The notes beneath the pieces are model-generated. The model had not been told where the DNA came from, searched no databases, and saw nothing but the letters and a program-made list of their open reading frames with translations. 64,000 nucleotides of DNA, taken from the IMG/VR virus record IMGVR_UViG_3300033072_001141, positions 17,794 to 81,793 of that record; one strand, written 5' to 3'. The DNA is from a virus. Lineage: Duplodnaviria > Caudoviricetes. The first letter of the stretch is position 1, and every line of letters starts with the position of its first letter. Below, in pieces: positions 134 through 41,713 of the stretch. The position numbers and the translations under genes were made by a program.

Positions 134-661
134 TCACCTCTCCTTCGACTCGTGGGCACGCATCCACGCTGCGATGCGGACGTGTTCTTCTGGCGTTCCG
201 TTGCTCTTGAGCGTGTTGGCGCGACCACTGATCACCGCGATGTTGCCGCACACATAGCCCAGCGACGGCTCAATCCTATCGAGCGTGGGCGAATGGTCAC
301 GGCGTCCCTTACCACGACCCTGCTCCAGCTTGATTCCGAGCACCGGACAGAACTCCGGAACGAAGATGTCATCGACCGAGATCTCGAACGGAACGCCCTT
401 CCGCTTTGCCCTGGCACGAGCCGACAGCCAAAGCTGTCTTGCTCTCGTCCTGTGAAGCCACTCGCGGCGCCACGCGGTGTACTTCTCGTGGTTTTTCTCT
501 CTGTACTTGGCGTGCGCTCGCGATCTGCACGCCTTGCACTGGTGGCCGCGTGCCCTCCTCTCGCTCTCCGGCTTGCTCTGCTGGCAGGTCGAGCAAACGA
601 ACGTCTGCTCTTCCGCCGGCTGAACAAGACGAAGATGCGAATCGAACATGACCGTCCTCAC
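134..661 (-). CDS. HNH/His-Me finger homing endonuclease with N-terminal CxxC pairs
   Basis: CSTC..CKAC, 'ARARAKRKGVPFEI', 'CPVLG', 'SPTLDRIEPSLGYVCGNIAVISGRANTLKSN'; start may be ATG 649. Confidence 0.8.
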   Translation of the reverse strand: MRTVMFDSHLRLVQPAEEQTFVCSTCQQSKPESERRARGHQCKACRSRAHAKYREKNHEKYTAWRREWLHRTRARQLWLSARARAKRKGVPFEISVDDIFVPEFCPVLGIKLEQGRGKGRRDHSPTLDRIEPSLGYVCGNIAVISGRANTLKSNGTPEEHVRIAAWMRAHESKER

Positions 662-1395
662 TTCGCGCGGCGCGCGGGCTTCTTGGGGGCTCGACCGTCG
701 CCGCTCTTGATCTCGCCGTCGTCGGCGAAGACCCGGAACGTCCCTGACCGCTGCCCGTTGTTCACGTCCGGCGGTGCCGAGTTCGGGCTGGTCGATCCTC
801 CGCGCTGGGACGAGGTCCTCACGGCGAAGTCGATCCCGAAGCGTTCACTCATGGCGCGCGCGGGGACCGGCACGCGGCCCTCACGAAGAGAGCGGATGAG
901 CGATCCCAGCTCGGGAACCGCCCTGTTCGCCGCCGCCGCCTCCAGCCTGCTGACCCAGCCGCGCCACTCCGTCCACTGCTCGTCGGTGGACTCGAACGCC
1001 GGCACGACGATGCGGTGCTGAACGAAGCTCTGGAGAAGGTCGATGAGCTTGTCGGTGGCGGGCCCGCGCCTCCAGCGCCCCGCCTCCTTGACCGCCCTGC
1101 CCGCCACCTCCGCGAGCCGCGACACCCACCGGAGCCAGTCCACCTCCGGGTCGGAGGTGGCCGTGTCGCGCTCCATGAGCGCCGAGAGCCGCACGAACGT
1201 CCTCGACTCGCCCTTCTGGCCGGCCGCCACGATCTCCTTCGCGGACATCTTCCGGTCGTCGTCTGGAACGCCGCACGCACGCTTGAGCGTGCTGAGCGCG
1301 ATGGCGATAGCCTGCTTCTGCGGCCTCCCGGCCTTCATCTCAGTAGAGATGTTGCGGCTAACAGCGCTGGCTACGCACGACTTGTCAAGCGGCAC
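658..1395 (-). CDS. Phage protein with 'NISTEMKAGRPQKQAIAIALS' N-terminal motif, possibly virion-associated
   Basis: GTG start after GGGGAGG RBS; N-terminal motif recalled from many phage hypothetical proteins. Confidence 0.7.
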   Translation of the reverse strand: MPLDKSCVASAVSRNISTEMKAGRPQKQAIAIALSTLKRACGVPDDDRKMSAKEIVAAGQKGESRTFVRLSALMERDTATSDPEVDWLRWVSRLAEVAGRAVKEAGRWRRGPATDKLIDLLQSFVQHRIVVPAFESTDEQWTEWRGWVSRLEAAAANRAVPELGSLIRSLREGRVPVPARAMSERFGIDFAVRTSSQRGGSTSPNSAPPDVNNGQRSGTFRVFADDGEIKSGDGRAPKKPARRAK

Positions 1396-2002
1396 GGCGG
1401 ACCTCCCCCTTCTGGTTCAGTTCACGGATGTTGGCGATGATCTTCGTCCGTGCTTCAAACTTCTCTTGCCCGATCGGGCCGCCGTTCGCCGCGATGTCGT
1501 CGAACTCGACCACCAGTTCGGCCTGCCTCTTCTTGACCACGAGCATTGAAGCGACCGCATCGAGCAGCCGACGCGCCTGCGCCGACGTGACGGTCCACTG
1601 CCAACTTGTCTTCCACTTCTCGTGGGTCTTCTTCTTGCGACAGACGTGACCACCGATCTTCCGCTTGAGCCACTCGACGAGGGGATAGCTGGTGTTGGTG
1701 ACGGTCACGCGGAGCTGCGCTTTGGCTGCGTTGCCCCAAGTGAACCCAACGCATCCCTCTCCGTCGATGATGCCGGCGATGTAACCGCGCTCCGCGTCCG
1801 AAAGGACCAGCGGTCCAAGCCTGCGCCGCTGAGCGTTCACCCGCGGAACGCCAGCCTCCTTGAGAGCCGCAGACACCGTCGCGTCACCCACTCGCTGATC
1901 CTTGGCGATCTTTCGGATCGACCACCCGGCGCGGTAAAGATCCACGATCCGACCACGCCGGTCGTTGGCCATGTGCTCAATGGCGCTCTTATCCAGCGGC
2001 AC
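1385..2002 (-). CDS. LAGLIDADG homing endonuclease with N-terminal HTH
   Basis: 'GYIAGIIDGEGCV' motif; HTH-like 'WSIRKIAKDQRVGDATVSAALK'; start re-called at GTG 2002 after CAGGAGG RBS. Confidence 0.85.
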   Translation of the reverse strand: MPLDKSAIEHMANDRRGRIVDLYRAGWSIRKIAKDQRVGDATVSAALKEAGVPRVNAQRRRLGPLVLSDAERGYIAGIIDGEGCVGFTWGNAAKAQLRVTVTNTSYPLVEWLKRKIGGHVCRKKKTHEKWKTSWQWTVTSAQARRLLDAVASMLVVKKRQAELVVEFDDIAANGGPIGQEKFEARTKIIANIRELNQKGEVRRAA

Positions 2003-17121: not shown

Positions 17122-17853
17122 CTACTTCACCTTGACGGTGCCCGAGAGGAAGTTCCTCCAGCGCGCCTTGATCCCCTGGAACTGCGCCGCGTTGATGGGC
17201 GTGCCCGACGGGCCCATGCCGGTGGGCACGGTGAGCGCGTTGATGGCGTCGATCAGCTCGTCGAGCAGGCCCTTGAGCGTGTCGCCGAGCACTGCCGCCT
17301 CGTTCGCGTCGAGCCCGATGTAGACGGTCTTCCCGCTCGCGTTGAACGCGCGCACGTTGCCGTCGTTGTCCATCTCGACGTAGGCGCCGTTCGCGTGCTC
17401 GATCCGCACCTTCTTGGCGTTGTCGCGCCCGTCGAGCGTGATCTTGTGCCCGTGAGGCGTCCACCATCCCCACGTGTCCGGGTCGCGGAGGTCCTCGGGG
17501 ATCTGATCTCGTCCCCAGACGCCCGCCTCCCAGACCGGCATGTCGAGCTTGCCGTTCTCGAAGGTGACCCAGACGATTGAGTCCACCGGCGGTGGCGCGC
17601 GGAACCCGTACCCGTTTCCAGCTCCACCTGGGAGCTTGGGGTACGCGATCCGCGAGACACCCTCCGCGTCGCCCACGGATGGAACGCGGACCCTGATCCG
17701 GCCCTGGTTGTTGTCGTCGGTGTTGCCGACGACGATGCCCCTGTAGACGCCGTAGTAGAGCCGGAACGACTCCAGCCCGTGCATCATGAGTTGGTCGAGG
17801 AACCGGAGGAACCCGGTGGCCGTGTAGGCGGGACCCGCACGCGTACCCATCAC
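17122..17853 (-). CDS. Baseplate spike (gp5/gpV OB-fold)
   Basis: 'YGVYRGIVVGNTD...GRIRVRVP...GYGF..PP.VDSIVWVTFENG..DMPVW'; C-terminal 'VPTGMGPSGTPIN'. Confidence 0.85.
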   Translation of the reverse strand: MMGTRAGPAYTATGFLRFLDQLMMHGLESFRLYYGVYRGIVVGNTDDNNQGRIRVRVPSVGDAEGVSRIAYPKLPGGAGNGYGFRAPPPVDSIVWVTFENGKLDMPVWEAGVWGRDQIPEDLRDPDTWGWWTPHGHKITLDGRDNAKKVRIEHANGAYVEMDNDGNVRAFNASGKTVYIGLDANEAAVLGDTLKGLLDELIDAINALTVPTGMGPSGTPINAAQFQGIKARWRNFLSGTVKVK

Positions 17854-19263: not shown

Positions 19264-19593
19264 TCACCTTCCTTCCAAGCCGCGCGTGGGACGCCGCAGG
19301 ATCTCGGAGAAGACGCGCCGACCAGACGGGATGCGGATGGTGTCGCCGCTGTTCAGGTCGTTGGGAAGCAGCTCGAACCCGTTCGCGATGGCGATGATCC
19401 ACCACAGCTCGGGCGAGCCGTAGAACCTGGTCGCGATCTTGTCGATGCGGTCGTTCCGATCGACCTTGTACTTGATGTCGTCGGGCGCCACGTCGATCAC
19501 CGGGTACTCGGGGTACTCCCAGTGCTCGACGCCGTCGATGGTGATGAGCCTCGCGTTCTTGAGCCGGCTGGTCTCTCGTAGAGAGACGGTCAT
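19264..19593 (-). CDS. LysM/gp53/gpX-like baseplate protein
   Basis: 'YKVDRNDRIDKIATRFYGSPELWWIIAIANG...DLNSGDTIRIP'. Confidence 0.85.
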   Translation of the reverse strand: MTVSLRETSRLKNARLITIDGVEHWEYPEYPVIDVAPDDIKYKVDRNDRIDKIATRFYGSPELWWIIAIANGFELLPNDLNSGDTIRIPSGRRVFSEILRRPTRGLEGR

Positions 19594-32872: not shown

Positions 32873-33508
32873 TCAGAGCCGCGCGTCGTCGTTCCTCGTC
32901 ACGGCGCTCACGATCTCGACCGCCGCGGAAGTTGCGCGCGCGGCCACCGGGCTGACCGTCGCCAGCGTCAGTTCGGCCACATGCTCTGGCTGGACCTCAA
33001 GCTCCTGGATGGACACGTCCGAGGAGGTCGCGTCGAAGTCGGAGCCCGCCTTGTACCTCGTCGGCAGGCAGTCGTAGAGGATCCACCCGCGGCCTGGAGT
33101 TCGTAGTGCTGCCTGGAGGAACGCCGTGTCGGGGAACGAGAGATTCGAGCCTGTGACCTGCGACTGCACCTTCCAGCCGAGGAAGTGGACGATCACGAGC
33201 GTGCGCCGAATCGGCTGCCGCCCGACGATGGCCCCGGTGATCCAGTTGTAGAAGTCGGAGTCGTAGAAGCGCGCCCCCCTGGACATCGAGACCGGACCTG
33301 CCTCGGCCTTCTTCACGATCCGGCGCTTGTACTCCCAGTTCCCCGGTTGCACATCGCGCAGCTCGACGGAGATCTCCGGAGCGGTGCAGGCCGAGAAGCC
33401 GAGCGCCGGATCGAAGATGCTGAGCAGCGAGTTCCCGCTGGGTCCCGACGCATCGAAGACCCAGAACGGGAACGCCTGCATCATGTCGAGAAGCCGCGCT
33501 CTCGCCAA
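32873..33508 (-). CDS. Tail tube protein, paralogue 2 (T4 gp19-like)
   Basis: 'GFSACTAPEISVE...GNWEY...VSMSRG..FYNW...W.LYDCLPTRYKAGSDFDATSSDVSIQELEV'; TTG start. Confidence 0.85.
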   Translation of the reverse strand: MARARLLDMMQAFPFWVFDASGPSGNSLLSIFDPALGFSACTAPEISVELRDVQPGNWEYKRRIVKKAEAGPVSMSRGARFYDSDFYNWITGAIVGRQPIRRTLVIVHFLGWKVQSQVTGSNLSFPDTAFLQAALRTPGRGWILYDCLPTRYKAGSDFDATSSDVSIQELEVQPEHVAELTLATVSPVAARATSAAVEIVSAVTRNDDARL

Positions 33509-33511
33509 AAC

Positions 33512-34324
33512 CTACCGTCCTTCCGAGAAGATACCGAACTTGCGTTCGCAACGGATGCCGAGGCTGTCAGCGTAGATTGCAAGCCCAAGCGCGTCCACGT
33601 TCTGACCGAAGAACCGGAGCTGTCCGATGCCGGTCTTCAACATCGACCTCGTACCCTTCGCACCATACTCCATCGCGAGTGCCTGAGCGTCGTCGAGCAT
33701 CCGAACGCTCTTCGATGTCAGCGCGCCAACCAGGTACGACCTCGTGCGTCGCTTGTCCGCCCAGCGGTTCCACGACCCATCGGAGTCCCAGAGTCCGCGA
33801 AGGAAGTGGGTGCGGTGGCCGCCGGCCTGGGGGATGCGGATCCTCTCTGCCTTGTTGCCGTAGCTGAGGCCCAACATCTCCTCGGCCAGCTCCACCAACG
33901 TGATGCCGCCGAGGTAGACGCTGACGCAGCCCTTGCGCTCGTAGAGGGAGCCGCCGCCGCTGAGGTCGCGAACACGCTCGCACACCTCCCGCGTCCCGCA
34001 CAGATGGACCGCCCTCCGCTCGATCCACCCGTCGCCGGAGATGAGGCCCCATGCCCACGCGCTGGCCGGCGTCCACGTCGCCCAAAACTCGCTCTTGAAC
34101 GGCAAGACGCGGTTCATGCGCCCGTTGGCCGAGCGGTAGTCCTCCGGCGTCCGAAGAACCCCGCGCGCCTCTAGGAAGCGCCTTGCACGGTCGCGAGGGA
34201 ACCCTGTGACCCTCGATGCCGCCGCGCTGGAGCCCAGTTCCTCGTAGGCACGAAGGAGCGCTGACTCCATCTCTGGAGTTACCTCACGTCGGTTCCAGGC
34301 AGCGGCGCCGACTACGAACACCAC
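33512..34324 (-). CDS. Two-motif LAGLIDADG homing endonuclease with N-terminal HTH
   Basis: 'AWAWGLISGDGWI' and 'HFLRGLWDSDGSW'. Confidence 0.85.
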   Translation of the reverse strand: MVFVVGAAAWNRREVTPEMESALLRAYEELGSSAAASRVTGFPRDRARRFLEARGVLRTPEDYRSANGRMNRVLPFKSEFWATWTPASAWAWGLISGDGWIERRAVHLCGTREVCERVRDLSGGGSLYERKGCVSVYLGGITLVELAEEMLGLSYGNKAERIRIPQAGGHRTHFLRGLWDSDGSWNRWADKRRTRSYLVGALTSKSVRMLDDAQALAMEYGAKGTRSMLKTGIGQLRFFGQNVDALGLAIYADSLGIRCERKFGIFSEGR

Positions 34325-34330
34325 GCCTGC

Positions 34331-34342
34331 ATCCTAGCACAA
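34331..34342 (-). promoter_or_regulatory. Putative extended -10 promoter TTGTGCTAGGAT, 6 nt before the endonuclease GTG
   Basis: TGnTAnnnT, overlapped by a CCTAGC/GCTAGG inverted repeat; no SD before the start. Confidence 0.5.
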
Positions 34343-34346
34343 GAGG

Positions 34347-34622
34347 CTAGGACTGGGCGACGATCTCCATGGCGCGCGGAAGCGGATCCGAGCACCGAGG
34401 GAAGTGCATGGCGCTGGTCTCCGGGTACGCGGCCGTGCCGAACTCGGCGACCATCACGCCGTCTCGCCATGCGCGAGACCGGCCCGGGTACTTCCGGTCC
34501 TTTCCGCCGGGCACCGTCACAGTGATGATGTCCACGGTGACCTCGTCGGCCTCGATCACCTCTCCCGATTCGAGTCTGACCTGCATGAGCGCCTCCATGT
34601 CGAGCAGCCGCGGACGAGCCAC
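34347..34622 (-). CDS. Small protein whose first 9 codons match tube paralogue 2 (MARPRLLDM)
   Basis: Direct sequence comparison with 33482-33508. Confidence 0.6.
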   Translation of the reverse strand: MARPRLLDMEALMQVRLESGEVIEADEVTVDIITVTVPGGKDRKYPGRSRAWRDGVMVAEFGTAAYPETSAMHFPRCSDPLPRAMEIVAQS

Positions 34623-34652: not shown

Positions 34653-35222
34653 TCAGACGCCGATGCGGGTGCCGTCCGGGCGGATGACGCCCCAGCGCTC
34701 GACGGCCACGTCCATCTCCATGATGCCCACGTCCGAGGTGGAGGCGTCGAGGTCGCCCGCGATCTTCACGCGGATGGGGAACGCCTCGAAGAGGAAGTAG
34801 CGCTTCGCCTCGTTGTTCGGGAACGAGGTCGCGAGGTCGTGCGGGAACGACCGGCCGGCGCGCGTCGCGTGGAACACCGTGATGTCCGTGCGGTACTCGC
34901 GACCCTCGATGGCCGCCAGGACCCAGCTCAGGAACGCCGTGTCGTTCCTGCCGACGCCGCGGGAGAAGGTGCAGTCGTTCACCGTGGGGACGCCCGGGTA
35001 CTTCTCGGTGTAGGTCTTGATGCCCTCCCGGTACTCGGCCGCCTCGACCGTGAACTCCGGGGTGGTGACCGCCGTGAAGCCCGCCTCGGACGTGTCACCC
35101 ACGCCTGGCGAGGGAACACCACCGGGCTGCATCGCGTCGATGGCCGCGAGTCCGTCGATCGCGCCAGCGCGCGCGTGGAAGCGGAAGTTGTGCAGCGGAT
35201 CCGTCGCCTGAGCCCTCGCCAT
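34653..35222 (-). CDS. Tail tube protein, paralogue 1 (T4 gp19-like)
   Basis: 'DPLHNFRF...AGF..VT.PE.TVE..EYREG...KYPG..T..D.TFSRG...FP.RV..GDLDASTSDV.I.EM.V..E'. Confidence 0.9.
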   Translation of the reverse strand: MARAQATDPLHNFRFHARAGAIDGLAAIDAMQPGGVPSPGVGDTSEAGFTAVTTPEFTVEAAEYREGIKTYTEKYPGVPTVNDCTFSRGVGRNDTAFLSWVLAAIEGREYRTDITVFHATRAGRSFPHDLATSFPNNEAKRYFLFEAFPIRVKIAGDLDASTSDVGIMEMDVAVERWGVIRPDGTRIGV

Positions 35223-37391: not shown

Positions 37392-37417
37392 TCGGTCTTC
37401 TCCTGGTCAGCGGTCGA

Positions 37418-39913
37418 TCAGCCGGTCGAGCTGAACTTCTGCTGGATGCGGAAGATGATGAACTCGCCCGGCTTGTTGGGCGCGATGTAGATGTCGCAGA
37501 TGACCTCGCCCGCCTCCTCGTTGTCCGCCGTGTTGTTCGACTCGTCGCAGATGACCGAGACGGCGTCCGTGAAGGTGGTGCCGGCGAAGTAGCCCTGGTT
37601 GAAGAGGTTCCGGAGGAACGACTCGACCGAGACCTGGATGCGCTGCCGGAGCGACGCGCCCACGTTCTCGAAGACGAAGCCGTGCGTGCCGTTGTAGATG
37701 CTGCTCTTGAGGAAGTTGAAGAGCCGGCGCACCTGGACGTAGCGGAAGTCGTCCGGCGGGTTCTCCAGCGTGCGCGCGCCCCAGACCGCGCGGCCGGTCT
37801 GCGGGGTGTCCACCAGGGCGTTGACCTGGCTCTGGAAGAACGTGTCGATCTCGGCGAACTCCAGCCGGCGCTCCAGGCCCTCCGAGAAGAGCAGGCGTCC
37901 GTCCTCGGTTCCCGCGGGGGCCTTGGCGACGTTCTTGTTCGTGTCCGTGCGCGCGTACACGCCCGCGACGTGTCCGATCGGCGGGATGTTGGCGCCGCGC
38001 TCCGTGAACGGATCGGTCACGCGGATGTACGGGTAGTAGAGCGCGCCGTAGCTCGACGAGATGCCGAGCGTGAAGCGCCTCCAGTCGCGCACCTGCTGGG
38101 GCGTCATGCCCGGCGGGCTCGCGAGGATGATGAACCACTTCTGGTTCGTCTCGGCCTCGGCGATCTGGTCGCTGGCCATCGTCACGTCGCCGGCCGCGTC
38201 CGGGATGCCGACGTTCAGCAGCTCGTCGGTGGTGAGCAGCGCGTACATGCCGCGCCGATCGGACTTGAGGGCCGGGCTGGTCATCTCGGCGCGACCGATG
38301 CCCGCCACACCGTCCGACCCGCCGGTGAGGGCGTCGGAGGTGGCCGTGTCCGCCGGGGTGACACGCGACGAGATCTGGATGATCGAGCCGGGGCGCGCAC
38401 CGGTCGGGACCGCGAGGTTCGAGGTCTCCGCCTCCGAGACCGCCGCCACGGTCCGGAAGGCGATCTTGCCGGACGTGTAGTTGACCCGGTTGTAGCCGGT
38501 GGGGGGCGCCGGATCGACATCGCCGACCAGGTTGCCGTTGCCGTCGTCCGTGATCGTGCGCGAGACGCCGGCCACGTCGGTGTAGGTGATCGAGACCGAG
38601 CCCGGCTGCACCGGCGTCGCCAGCGCGTCCGTGCGGAACCCGACCGGGATCGACGGGAAGCCGTCCGGGTCGGCCGCCGCGGTCGAGCCCCAGTTCTGGT
38701 TCGAGCCGTTGCCCGAGCCGCCGGAGCGGGTGCGCAGCTTGCCGTTGAGCGACGACGGGATGACCGGCTCGTTCGCGGGATCGACCAGCGTGATGAGGTC
38801 CGACCCCTGGGTGGGATCGTTGATGGCGGTGATGACGTAGTCCGGGTCGGACGGGTCCGTCATCGAGAGGTTCAGGAAGGTCTCCTGGACCTCGCCGTCG
38901 AGGAGAACCTGCACGTCCGCGCGCGAGTAGGTCGCGGTGGAGCGCGTGAAGGAGTCCTCGTTGCCCCGGACCTGGACCTCCAGGTCGTTGCCCCACGCGC
39001 CCTTCGAGATCGGATCGATGTCGAAGGCGCGGCACGTGTAGGCCGCGAGGACCGAGTTCCCGCGGGCCGGCGTCGCGGGGACCGTGGTGGTGAACGCGTA
39101 GGCGCCCGTCGCGTAGTCGATGGTGCCGGGCGCAGCGAGGTCGGCACCGGTCAGCGCGCCAGATCCATCGTCCGTGATCGTCGAGAGCGCGCCCTCCGGC
39201 GTGTAGCTCATCGTGATCGCGGTCGCGTTGTCCGGAGCCTGCCCCGTCTCCGCCGACAGCGCCCAGTGGCCGGTCTTGTAGTCGATGAAGCCGCGCGTGT
39301 CGCCCGCGCCGTCCTTGAGGATGCCGTCGAAGGCCGGGTCCGTGTAGGTGTACGGCGCGGCGGCGACGGTCGTCGTCAGCGTGACCGTGCCAGGGACGAT
39401 CTTGGCTCCGCCAGCGACGGATACACGACCGGCGAAGTCGAGCAGGACGCTGTCCGTGGCCGGGGAGTTGTTGGTGGCCGCCGCGACGACCGGCGTGCCG
39501 AGCCGGCGCCAGGTGATCGACACCGACGACGCCTGGACCTGCGGCGCCTGCGCGAGAGACCCGGCGAACGCCACGACCGTTCCGTCGCCGGTCTCGATGG
39601 CCTCCTCGGTCACGTCGCTGGTGATGAAGCCGTCGGCCGCCACGGCGTCCGAGGCGACCACGCGCACGACGTACGCACGCCGACCGCCGTTCGCGAAGAA
39701 CGCGAAGAGGTGCAGCGGCACGCCGCTCTGGTCGGTGAAGTCGCCGAAGGTCCGCGTGAACTGCTCGAACGACGACACCAGGACGGCCTCGTCGGTCGGA
39801 CCGCGGAGCGTGAATCCGACGGTGCCGAAGGTGCTCGTGGACACGCCCGTGATGGGGGCGACGCCACGACGCCGCTCCTCGACGTAGACGCCCGGGTGCA
39901 ACCTTTCGACCAT
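37418..39913 (-). CDS. Contractile tail sheath protein
   Basis: 'HPGVYVEE...STGTFG..RGP..AVLVSSFEQF.RTFG..FFANGG.RAYVVRV'; C-terminal 'PPIGHVAGVYARTD..VAKAPAG..VWGARTL..YVQVRRL..FE'. Confidence 0.95.
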   Translation of the reverse strand: MVERLHPGVYVEERRRGVAPITGVSTSTFGTVGFTLRGPTDEAVLVSSFEQFTRTFGDFTDQSGVPLHLFAFFANGGRRAYVVRVVASDAVAADGFITSDVTEEAIETGDGTVVAFAGSLAQAPQVQASSVSITWRRLGTPVVAAATNNSPATDSVLLDFAGRVSVAGGAKIVPGTVTLTTTVAAAPYTYTDPAFDGILKDGAGDTRGFIDYKTGHWALSAETGQAPDNATAITMSYTPEGALSTITDDGSGALTGADLAAPGTIDYATGAYAFTTTVPATPARGNSVLAAYTCRAFDIDPISKGAWGNDLEVQVRGNEDSFTRSTATYSRADVQVLLDGEVQETFLNLSMTDPSDPDYVITAINDPTQGSDLITLVDPANEPVIPSSLNGKLRTRSGGSGNGSNQNWGSTAAADPDGFPSIPVGFRTDALATPVQPGSVSITYTDVAGVSRTITDDGNGNLVGDVDPAPPTGYNRVNYTSGKIAFRTVAAVSEAETSNLAVPTGARPGSIIQISSRVTPADTATSDALTGGSDGVAGIGRAEMTSPALKSDRRGMYALLTTDELLNVGIPDAAGDVTMASDQIAEAETNQKWFIILASPPGMTPQQVRDWRRFTLGISSSYGALYYPYIRVTDPFTERGANIPPIGHVAGVYARTDTNKNVAKAPAGTEDGRLLFSEGLERRLEFAEIDTFFQSQVNALVDTPQTGRAVWGARTLENPPDDFRYVQVRRLFNFLKSSIYNGTHGFVFENVGASLRQRIQVSVESFLRNLFNQGYFAGTTFTDAVSVICDESNNTADNEEAGEVICDIYIAPNKPGEFIIFRIQQKFSSTG

Positions 39914-39916
39914 GAC

Positions 39917-40459
39917 TCAGCCTCCTGCGACGTTGGCGAGCCTGAAAGCCCGCTGATCCTGGATCCGACCCACCAGCGACACGACGTTGTCTACATGCTC
40001 AGGGAATCGACGAATCCATCCCTTTTTGCCGTGGAGGTTCTGGTGGATGAACACCACGAGCTGCCTCCAGAGAGCGTAGTCGAGCGACTTCTTGCTCTGG
40101 AGCGGAAAGCGATCGAAGTGGGGAATGACCTTCTCGACGAGTGAGTCGATATCCTCCACGCGCAGCGACACGGACGGGTTGGCACCTGGAACCGAAGCCC
40201 TGCGTTTGGACGAAACGGGCTTCTCCCTGACGGTGCCGGCCCCGAAGTACGCGACCAGCTTGTCGAGCGTCCGTCTGTCGTCGGCGCGAAGCTGGACTTG
40301 CAGTCCTACGTACTGATTGAAACACCGGTGGATCCGTCCCGACTGGGCCAGCTTCTCCTTGGCGGAGTACGAGGCGTAGAAGCATCCCTCGCCATCGATC
40401 AGGCCGGTGACCCACCAGCCGAACGACGGATCGTCGGGAAGCCTCAGACGCTCGACCAT
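39917..40459 (-). CDS. Single-motif LAGLIDADG homing endonuclease
   Basis: 'WWVTGLIDGEGCFY', 'VIPHFDRFPLQSKKSLDYALW'. Confidence 0.9.
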   Translation of the reverse strand: MVERLRLPDDPSFGWWVTGLIDGEGCFYASYSAKEKLAQSGRIHRCFNQYVGLQVQLRADDRRTLDKLVAYFGAGTVREKPVSSKRRASVPGANPSVSLRVEDIDSLVEKVIPHFDRFPLQSKKSLDYALWRQLVVFIHQNLHGKKGWIRRFPEHVDNVVSLVGRIQDQRAFRLANVAGG

Positions 40460-40495
40460 GACAGTGACCTCCGTCCCAGTGGGATGAGAAGAAAC

Positions 40496-40933
40496 TCAGC
40501 GGCGCCTTCGGCGCCTTCCGCTGCTCTGCTTCTCCTGCTCCACCGGCGGACTGGCCCCTGGGCCATCCTCCGAACCTGCTTCTACTTCTGCCTGGGCAGC
40601 CTGCGATGCCGACCCTACCACATCCTGATCGACATCCGACCCATCGTCCTTGACGATCGGTTCGGCCTCGACCTGCGCCTCTTCTTCTTGGGGCGCCTCC
40701 GGAGCTGCCGGCGCTGACGCCACCGGCTGCTCTGACACCGCGTCGGACCGCGGATCGACCGGATCCGTCGTCGGCTTCGCGTCCTTCACCCGGACCACCA
40801 TGTTGGACCGCAAGAGGTGCGAGACCGAGGCGATGGGTGCCTCGAACCTGGCCTTGGGCCGGATCACCACAGATCCACGGCCGGGGATCTCGACCGGGGT
40901 GGGAGACGTGCCCTTGTAGTGCCAGGTGGCCAT
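40496..40933 (-). CDS. Hypothetical protein with low-complexity acidic tail
   Basis: MATWHYKG...; start re-called at ATG 40933. Confidence 0.6.
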   Translation of the reverse strand: MATWHYKGTSPTPVEIPGRGSVVIRPKARFEAPIASVSHLLRSNMVVRVKDAKPTTDPVDPRSDAVSEQPVASAPAAPEAPQEEEAQVEAEPIVKDDGSDVDQDVVGSASQAAQAEVEAGSEDGPGASPPVEQEKQSSGRRRRRR

Positions 40934-40935
40934 CG

Positions 40936-41640
40936 TCACCGGATCCTTGCCAGCTTCGTCCTCAGAGGTCCAGTCCTGACGGTCAGATTCGGAGAAGTGG
41001 GGGCCTCGAACGGCTCCTCGAAGTCCAGTTCGCCCTCGACCCTGACCGGGATGGTGTGCCCGTGCATCCGTTCGGCGACGCCGCCGATCTCCGCCAGGTT
41101 CTCGTAGCTGTCCACGAACGCGTGGTAGCCGCGCTTGTCGCCCTCGGAGTCGGTCAGGAACACCTGGCCGTAGGCCGGCAAGCGCCTTCCCACGACCCGC
41201 AGGATCCGATCGGCCTGCCCCCGCAGACGCGCGCGTAGGTGTACGTCGTAGGAGATGTCGAAGGGGTACGTCCAGCCCTTGATCTCGACACGGCTCGGAC
41301 CCTTGAGCCCGCCCGACGAAGTGACCTCCCGTGCGCCCTGCGCGGGGACCATGTACTCGTGGCCGCCGCCGAACCATCTCGCCATCGCCGGCTGGATCGA
41401 GCCGCGAGAGATGACGATCTGGGGCAGTAGTTCGTCCGAGAACGCGTCCTCGGCGTCCGACATGACGATCGGGACGAGACCGCTGTACTGGTCCGGTCCG
41501 GTCACGTTCGGGACGCGCAGCGCGTAGACCTCGGCGATCTCGCCATCCAGCTCGATCTGGACCTTCTCGCCTCCGATGGTCTCAGCCAGCCCGATGTCGA
41601 AGTCTTCGATGAAGACGGTGCCGGTCCGACCATTCGCCAT
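40936..41640 (-). CDS. Tail terminator/completion protein (T4 gp15-like)
   Basis: 'VPIVM..LPQIVISR...PFDISYDVHLRAR...ADRIL' pattern; position before the sheath. Confidence 0.55.
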   Translation of the reverse strand: MANGRTGTVFIEDFDIGLAETIGGEKVQIELDGEIAEVYALRVPNVTGPDQYSGLVPIVMSDAEDAFSDELLPQIVISRGSIQPAMARWFGGGHEYMVPAQGAREVTSSGGLKGPSRVEIKGWTYPFDISYDVHLRARLRGQADRILRVVGRRLPAYGQVFLTDSEGDKRGYHAFVDSYENLAEIGGVAERMHGHTIPVRVEGELDFEEPFEAPTSPNLTVRTGPLRTKLARIR

Positions 41641-41713
41641 CGGGTGACCTCACGTCAGCGCGCGCCGCCCGGAACCGATGTCCCGAGCGGCGCGACCCAC
41701 GAAGGAGGAGCGA

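Follow-up and report, generated by a model that had tools for sequence, protein, structure and literature searches.

To our knowledge, homing endonuclease genes are thought to survive within essential coding sequences only by means of an intron or an intein, and otherwise to lie between genes or to split the gene that they enter. The free-standing homing endonucleases of T4-like phages, i.e., the seg and mob genes, are intron-less, encode GIY-YIG or HNH enzymes and are located between genes or split them, as for mobE in nrdA of Aeh1 and mobA in gene 39/60 of T4, where the host gene is divided into two polypeptides (PMC2988022). Mobile endonuclease open reading frames (mORFs) of fungal mitochondria form 'gene hybrids' with the genes that they enter, as in atp6, atp9, cox2 and nad3 of Glomus (PMC3630166) and, earlier, in atp6 of Allomyces macrogynus (Paquin, Laforest and Lang, 1994, as cited in PMC3630166). 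In fractured genes, a free-standing nuclease gene is reported to lie between the halves of a split intein (PMC2677866). Here we analyzed the 5′ end of the tail sheath gene in a 64,000-nucleotide stretch of viral DNA (positions 17,794 to 81,793 of the IMG/VR record IMGVR_UViG_3300033072_001141; hereafter 'the window'), where a LAGLIDADG nuclease gene and the sheath gene behind it open with the same five residues, MVERL. We consider it likely that this is a free-standing LAGLIDADG homing element, contained in neither an intron nor an intein, which would spread by homing and which carries a portable, re-spelled start for the gene that it enters.

The nuclease open reading frame (ORF) spans 39917..40459 on the minus strand, to which all features below belong, and encodes 180 residues; the tail sheath ORF (37418..39913) encodes 831. 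The upstream copy of the shared start, ATGGTCGAGCGTCTG at 40459..40445, reads ATG GTC GAG CGT CTG and opens the nuclease ORF, and the downstream copy, ATGGTCGAAAGGTTG at 39913..39899, reads ATG GTC GAA AGG TTG and opens the sheath ORF. The two differ at 4 of 15 nucleotides (GAG/GAA, two positions in CGT/AGG, CTG/TTG), all of them synonymous. The nuclease ends in GCA GGA GGC TGA, and the GGAGG within these last codons (39921..39925), a ribosome-binding site (RBS) supplied by the element, lies 7 nt ahead of the sheath ATG; similar endings, i.e., ...GG followed by the stop, are seen in loci L002 and L025. A first-pass annotation, made from the letters of the window, had described the twin start, its four silent differences and this RBS, and the ORFs, the copies and the RBS were found as it had said. 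The sheath ATG follows the nuclease stop after 3 nt, and the two starts are 546 nt apart, which places both ORFs in one common reading frame. GC content falls to 0.575-0.63 across the nuclease relative to about 0.70 in the sheath, and GC content at third codon positions (GC3) is 0.79 in the nuclease relative to 0.957 in the sheath. What the element adds to its own coding sequence amounts to 27 nt, i.e., the RBS, the ATG and four re-spelled codons. The sheath gene itself is intact: it matches PHROG 23, tail sheath, at E 5e-58, as well as Pfam Phage_sheath_1 and Phage_sheath_1C, and its residues 1-829 align to the nuclease-less orthologues in L005, L054 and L069. As an observation on this junction, only TGA GTC (39914..39919) parts the same-frame nuclease and sheath, and stop read-through would yield a nuclease-sheath fusion; the in-frame pair occurs also in L002 and is absent from L025, and is therefore probably incidental.

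The closest nuclease-less relative on the sheath tree is L005, a 186-kb contig identical to L060; its sheath is 83% identical to that of the window and is sister to those of the window and L002. In L005, a homologue of the gene upstream of the nuclease is followed by a homologous spacer (...CCCCACTGAGGGGACGGAGGCTCTGTC) and then by ATGGTCGAGCGTCTT directly joined to CATCCGGGCGTCTAC. Homology between the window and L005 covers the upstream gene, the spacer after it and the nuclease ORF as far as its first 15 nt, halts there, and picks up again at CACCCGGGC (39898). Because the flank homology stops and resumes at the borders of the repeat, the window carries a 546-bp (182-codon) in-frame insertion after sheath codon 5 (39899..40444), which holds nuclease codons 6-180, the TGA, the new RBS, the new ATG and re-spelled sheath codons 2-5. 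The empty site had been predicted in the first-pass annotation as ATGGTCGAGCGTCTG joined to CACCCGGGCGTCTAC, to be sought in relatives; L005 has a nuclease-less allele of this form, which agrees with the prediction at 28 of 30 nt, both differences being at third codon positions.

The empty site also bears on which of the two copies is native. Of the 15 nt of the L005 sheath start, 14 are shared by the upstream copy (40445..40459, codons 1-5 of the nuclease) and 10 by the downstream copy (39899..39913, identical in L002), while both copies encode MVERL. A second pair of filled and empty sites, L025 and L048, has the same polarity: the nuclease start of L025 carries on the native flank (GCGTCGAGGCTAG...ATGGC) and keeps MAE, and the sheath behind this nuclease starts MSERL, whereas the nuclease-less sisters start MAERL. 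As had been proposed in the first-pass annotation, these alignments support a native origin of the upstream copy and carriage of the downstream copy by the element. The flank ahead of the upstream copy belongs to the same native sequence: the sheath's RBS, a GGAGG at 40468..40472 with an 8-nt spacer, is continuous with the homologous spacer of L005 (...GGACGGAGGCTCTGTC ATG) and is now that of the nuclease, and the 145-residue gene of unassigned function further upstream (40496..40933), for which no Pfam or PHROG match was found, marks the native left flank, with homologues at the same place in L002 and in nuclease-less L005. We also observed a short hairpin just 5′ of the sheath RBS in the relatives L003, L004, L005 and L006, in which the stems differ in sequence and are nevertheless complementary (CATCCCC-GCAAA-GGGGATG in L003, CGTCCC-ACCGGC-GGGACG in L004, CCCC-ACTGA-GGGG in L005); that of the window (TCCC-ACT-GGGA, about 40476..40487) has remained with the nuclease start, as native flank would.

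Compared to the described systems, the sheath element stands nearest to the mORFs. Both have a nuclease ORF that is in phase with the conserved gene containing it, a duplicate gene terminus that is carried along, and a host gene that remains whole without splicing; in both, the carried copy has diverged in DNA far beyond what is seen in the protein, and the native copy matches a close relative. mORFs differ in replacing the C-terminus, in residing in organelle genomes, in carrying duplicates of tens to hundreds of bases and in leaving the native remnant downstream. In the sheath element it is the N-terminus that is replaced (15 nt and an RBS), the host is a phage, and the native remnant becomes the start of the nuclease, which takes over the host's translation signals. 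Thus, the in-phase ORF, the duplicated terminus and the pattern of divergence between native and carried copies are those of the mORFs, the mitochondrial C-terminus is not, and the sheath element is an N-terminal, phage mirror-image variant of the mORFs that falls outside the described set.

With the seg and mob genes, the element shares an intron-less nuclease gene in a T4-like phage, placed beside or in a conserved gene, as well as stop and start codons that lie close together or overlap, suggestive of translational coupling, patchy presence and co-conversion of flanks. Those enzymes are not of the LAGLIDADG type, and none is described in PMC2988022 as borrowing the start of its host gene and supplying a re-spelled replacement. 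Fractured genes likewise hold a nuclease gene inside an essential coding sequence without destroying it, but need protein trans-splicing, whereas the sheath element needs none and re-supplies the five lost codons. Our literature searches, incomplete in coverage and no proof of absence, found no account of phage nuclease cassettes that capture a gene start and replace it.

The identity of the nuclease was assessed by sequence and by predicted structure. It matches Pfam LAGLIDADG_1 (PF00961) over residues 18-134 at E 8e-15 (56 bits against a cutoff of 23.1), and a profile built from a family of 8 homologues matches chains of the I-OnuI family at E 1e-35 to 1e-22, i.e., halves of I-OnuI, I-LtrI and I-SmaMI as well as I-TnaI. 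The single motif region, WWVTGLIDGEG (residues 15-25, 40385..40417), contains G19, L20, D22, G23, E24 and G25, all invariant in the 8-member alignment, and the acidic E24 aligns with the metal-binding E of the DAEG/DGES motif in solved enzymes. The AlphaFold2 model (mean predicted local distance difference test score, pLDDT, 79.4) has the α-β-β-α-β-β-α core of the LAGLIDADG fold, although the motif helix is poorly modelled in the monomer, and Foldseek places the model with I-OnuI, I-SmaMI, I-LtrI and I-TnaI at probability 1.00, with a template-modelling score of 0.67 on I-TnaI (5gkk). Profile, motif and predicted fold therefore agree with these enzymes, which are encoded within group I introns that interrupt rRNA or organelle genes, whereas the window nuclease stands alone in a phage structural gene. 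By analogy with I-TnaI, a protein of 180 residues with one motif probably acts as a homodimer. Residues 1-15 are disordered in the model (pLDDT < 50), and between 3 and 14 residues precede the conserved WW across the family; for both reasons, the borrowed N-terminal residues appear to be passengers outside the enzyme fold.

At its other end, the window nuclease also differs from the I-TnaI and I-OnuI types in having a conserved C-terminal extension of about 45 residues beyond the Pfam domain (residues ~136-180, 39917..40054; GKKGW.RRFPE...V..L....R). It is modelled as helices at residues 148-170, and may be an extra DNA-binding or dimerization element. The LAGLIDADG genes found in a scan of GTDB genomes with the family profile were all distant (24-36% identity) and belonged mostly to metagenome-assembled genomes of Patescibacteria and other uncultured phyla; the scan gave no member of the sheath-associated subfamily and no clue to the host.

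Sequence searches recovered homologous nucleases of 36-82% identity, and all of those with readable context lie directly 5′ of a sheath gene. Nine lineages carry the nuclease, and the distance from its stop to the sheath ATG is 3 nt in the window and L002, 1 nt in L025 and L037, 2 nt in L039, 9 nt in L038 and –8 nt in L028, L031 and L032. In 7 of the 9, the nuclease opens with sheath-like residues: besides the window, these are MVERS ahead of a sheath that starts MVERL (L002), MAEKT ahead of MSERL (L025), MAEGLH ahead of MAEILS (L031), MAELLS ahead of MAELLS (L032), MAEL ahead of MAELLS (L037) and MAEIL ahead of MAEFL (L039). The twin start of L032 differs at 6 of 18 nt, all silent, including Ser TCC/AGT and Leu CTC/TTG. 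All 28 metagenome loci with the sheath start M[AV]ERLHPGVYVEE lack the nuclease; empty sites are those of L005/L060, L054, L069, L048 and 24 more. Presence and absence of the nuclease are thus polymorphic at one fixed site among otherwise colinear relatives. In a separate observation on spacing, the nuclease TGA of L028 (position 4488), L031 (2509) and L032 (806) falls within sheath codons 2 and 3 (ATGGCTGA), and this 8-nt overlap is a tighter and different coupling layout from the TGAGTCATG of the window.

The insert stands in frame between sheath codons 5 and 6, so that the nuclease ORF has the sheath's RBS, ATG and first five codons, and the end of the insert (stop, GGAGG, new ATG and re-spelled codons 2-5) lets a full-length sheath ORF restart 3 nt past the nuclease stop. 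From these comparisons we propose the following mechanism. The enzyme, probably as a homodimer, would cut nuclease-less sheath alleles in the conserved stretch that encodes ERLHPGVYVEE, near codons 5 and 6, and repair from a nuclease-bearing genome in a co-infected cell would then copy the nuclease together with its portable start. On this account, the upstream copy would be the recipient's own start, free to decay later (to MVERS in L002 and MAEKT in L025), while the downstream copy would travel with the element. Because the downstream junction rebuilds the whole 5′ end of the sheath gene, a target near codons 5 and 6 would be regenerated there unless it were re-spelled; the silent differences may thus keep the regenerated end uncleavable, and may also lower the recombination between repeats that would delete the element. 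Translation of the sheath would restart at the new RBS, and would probably be coupled to termination of the nuclease.

Several observations weigh against this reading of the locus. The phage is uncultured and known from an 81.8-kb contig alone, and the case for homing is made from sequence. A homodimer would prefer a symmetrical target, and when the L005 empty site and its surroundings were scanned for 22-bp pseudo-palindromes, the best value was 7/11, which is ordinary relative to background and does not place the target. In L028 and L038, the nuclease begins with its own, unrelated start, i.e., start capture is not family-wide (absent from 2 of 9). Other points on this side concern the spelling of the sheath's first codons and the divergence of the nuclease, and are given with the alternatives that they favor.

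One alternative accepts the insertion as real and takes the four silent differences to be unprotective, arising from divergence of the donor's sheath gene or from an A/T-richer, weakly folded neighbourhood of the start codon; we regard this as rather unlikely. That the codons of the sheath copy are atypical, as the first-pass annotation had claimed, is correct: codons 3-5 hold the only GAA (1 of 35 Glu codons), the only TTG (1 of 48 Leu) and one of the 2 AGG codons (among 47 Arg) in a gene with the GC3 given above. To call these codons the clearest indication of polarity was too strong, because L054 (GTG GAA AGA CTG) and L069 (GCT GAG AGG CTT), in genes with GC3 of 0.93-0.96, have rare codons at positions 3-5 without any nuclease; the argument from rare codons is not decisive, and by themselves such codons are weak proof of a foreign origin of the downstream copy. 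Compared to L054, the downstream copy agrees at 12 of 15 nt and the upstream copy at 11 of 15. The re-spelling could come from donor ancestry or from selection for an unstructured start region, not from protection, and a random synonymous spelling of VERL is expected by our own calculation to give about 3.4 differences, close to the 4 that are seen.

These points are countered by the kind of codon change and by where it occurs. An Arg AGR codon paired with a Leu TTR codon is found in the window, L002 and L025, thus in two lineages whose nucleases are only 50% identical, and in 0 of 28 nuclease-less alleles. Just past the junction, the sheath gene returns directly to an L005-like, GC-rich spelling. 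Switches between the boxes of six-fold degenerate codons recur in the copies of L032 (TCC/AGT and CTC/TTG) and in another cassette of the window, which opens with MPLDKS (AGC/TCG). Because of the AGR and TTR pair, the spelling after the junction and the recurrent box switches, the downstream copy is best viewed as part of the mobile unit. As for an open start, RNA folds of the native start, the element-supplied start and the L005 start were all as stable as shuffled controls; the new start region folds no weaker than these controls, and neither a regulatory hairpin nor a deliberately open start was indicated.

A second alternative holds that the nuclease is a resident that no longer moves, either as the scar of an old insertion or as a domesticated enzyme that excludes co-infecting relatives or sets sheath translation by coupling, with the twin start as a by-product of one imprecise insertion. 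We think this improbable. Between the window and L002, synonymous divergence (dS) is 0.63 for the nuclease, relative to 0.28 for the sheath and 0.29 for the upstream gene; a nuclease more diverged than its flanks speaks against a very recent transfer, and long residence or exchange of nuclease alleles would fit equally well. Across lineages, nuclease and sheath divergence climb together, and the tight spacing of stop and start is conserved. The use of an intron endonuclease in competition between phages has been documented (PMC11620839).

Against a resident nuclease stands its patchy presence: on the tree of 34 sheath sequences, seven carriers need 6 changes, of which at least 5 are forced by well-supported branches. 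The ratio of nonsynonymous to synonymous divergence (dN/dS) between the nucleases of the window and L002 is 0.17, i.e., purifying selection, which together with the invariant catalytic motif shows that the protein has been kept functional. The upstream copy is fresh in the window and decayed in L002 and L025, a pattern that fits repeated re-entry. The identity of the window and L002 is patchy within the nuclease (65-95%), rises to 95-98% right beside the insert on both sides and is lower further out, and this profile is consistent with nuclease alleles having been exchanged and the nearest flanks co-converted with them. Exclusion of relatives, moreover, would still work through cutting at the same site.

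A third alternative places the nuclease ORF within a self-splicing group I intron or takes it to be an intein, which would make the first MVERL exon or extein 1 and the second irrelevant; this is very improbable. An ORF in frame with upstream host codons is indeed common for organelle intron ORFs, but 525 of the 546 bases of the insert are coding and it has its own stop, RBS and ATG; in L025, moreover, the nuclease and sheath starts are 550 nt apart and in different frames. A group I intron was rejected, since no Rfam family matched 39000..41500 at E ≤ 1 in a permissive scan and the sheath ORF is complete and colinear with nuclease-less orthologues. An intein was rejected as well: the ORF ends in ...VAGG and then TGA, the upstream junction is L|R and the downstream one a new Met, and there is neither a Cys, Ser or Thr at either junction nor a His-Asn end.

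Two simpler accounts of the repeat were also discarded. LAGLIDADG enzymes make a double-strand cut at a site of about 20 bp and leave 4-nt 3′ overhangs; a target-site duplication of the transposase kind does not fit a repeat of 15 nt, whose silent sites are moreover already saturated while carriers retain 95-98% identity in the adjacent flanks. That neighbouring genes share MVERL by coincidence, a reading for which it can be said that only five residues, the initiator among them, are held in common, has next to no probability, since the homology to the L005 empty site breaks off and starts again precisely at the edges of the repeat, different peptides (MAELLS, MAEL) are shared in the same way elsewhere in the family, and an exact-prefix scan for twin starts found 6 pairs in the window but none once the sequence was reversed.

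Beyond the sheath locus, the window contains at least two further twin-start LAGLIDADG cassettes. In the first, a 205-residue ORF (1385..2002) and the ORF behind it (658..1395) both open with MPLDKS; the former matches HTH_23 and, just short of the cutoff, LAGLIDADG_3 (E 1.7e-4), and the starts, GTGCCGCTGGATAAGAGC and GTGCCGCTTGACAAGTCG, differ at 5 of 18 nt, all silent, including the Ser switch AGC/TCG. The second (32873..34622) is situated just downstream of a T4 gp19-type tail tube gene (34653..35222), and consists of a 91-residue ORF that starts at 34622 with MARPRLLDME, a LAGLIDADG_3 ORF of 270 residues (33512..34324, E 4e-6) and a 211-residue ORF that starts at 33508 with MARARLLDMM. Judged from its sequence, the MAR(P/A)RLLDM pair would be a further case of start capture and replacement, with a small ORF in addition. 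A further pair, with starts at 19593 and 19034 (559 nt apart), opens both times with MTVSL (ATGACCGTCTCTCTA and GTGACTGTTTCATTG, 6 of 15 nt different, all silent). Its intervening 109-residue ORF is no recognisable nuclease (a weak gp53-like match, E 0.004), the ORF downstream has a weak match to a baseplate hub, and the pair could be due to chance or be a decayed cassette.

As for the genome that holds these cassettes, the 81.8-kb IMG/VR contig of which the window is a part encodes, among the neighbouring genes, a major head protein, a head maturation protease and the T4 gp19-type tail tube, and the contigs of relatives are about 186-191 kb in length; because of these neighbours and contig sizes, the phage is taken to be a large T4-like myovirus. 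BLASTN of 37400..41700 against 50,697 deposited phage records returned no match, and hence no relative with annotation.

The sheath cassette is one instance of a recurrent strategy. We suggest tentatively, with somewhat less than even confidence, that the portable start is a general invasion device, by which unrelated nucleases in this group of large phages invade essential late structural genes (sheath, tube and others) within their first codons, using the RBS and ATG of the gene and bringing a substitute start, with re-spelling selected both as self-immunity and against deletion through the repeats; it would then be a third solution beside introns and inteins. What is found here is a LAGLIDADG family that resides within the first codons of the tail sheath gene, among the most heavily expressed of late genes, with an add-on of 27 nt alone. 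The arrangement hands the nuclease the expression signals of the host gene for free, and would tie translation of the sheath to the element. Gene callers and comparative pipelines would take such cassettes for ordinary intergenic genes, and would overlook the host-gene origin of the nuclease's first codons. The locus also offers a natural test of how few silent changes immunise a target, which would be useful for the rules of meganuclease recognition, and because at least two more cassettes lie in the same window, this group of phages is a good system in which to study the strategy.

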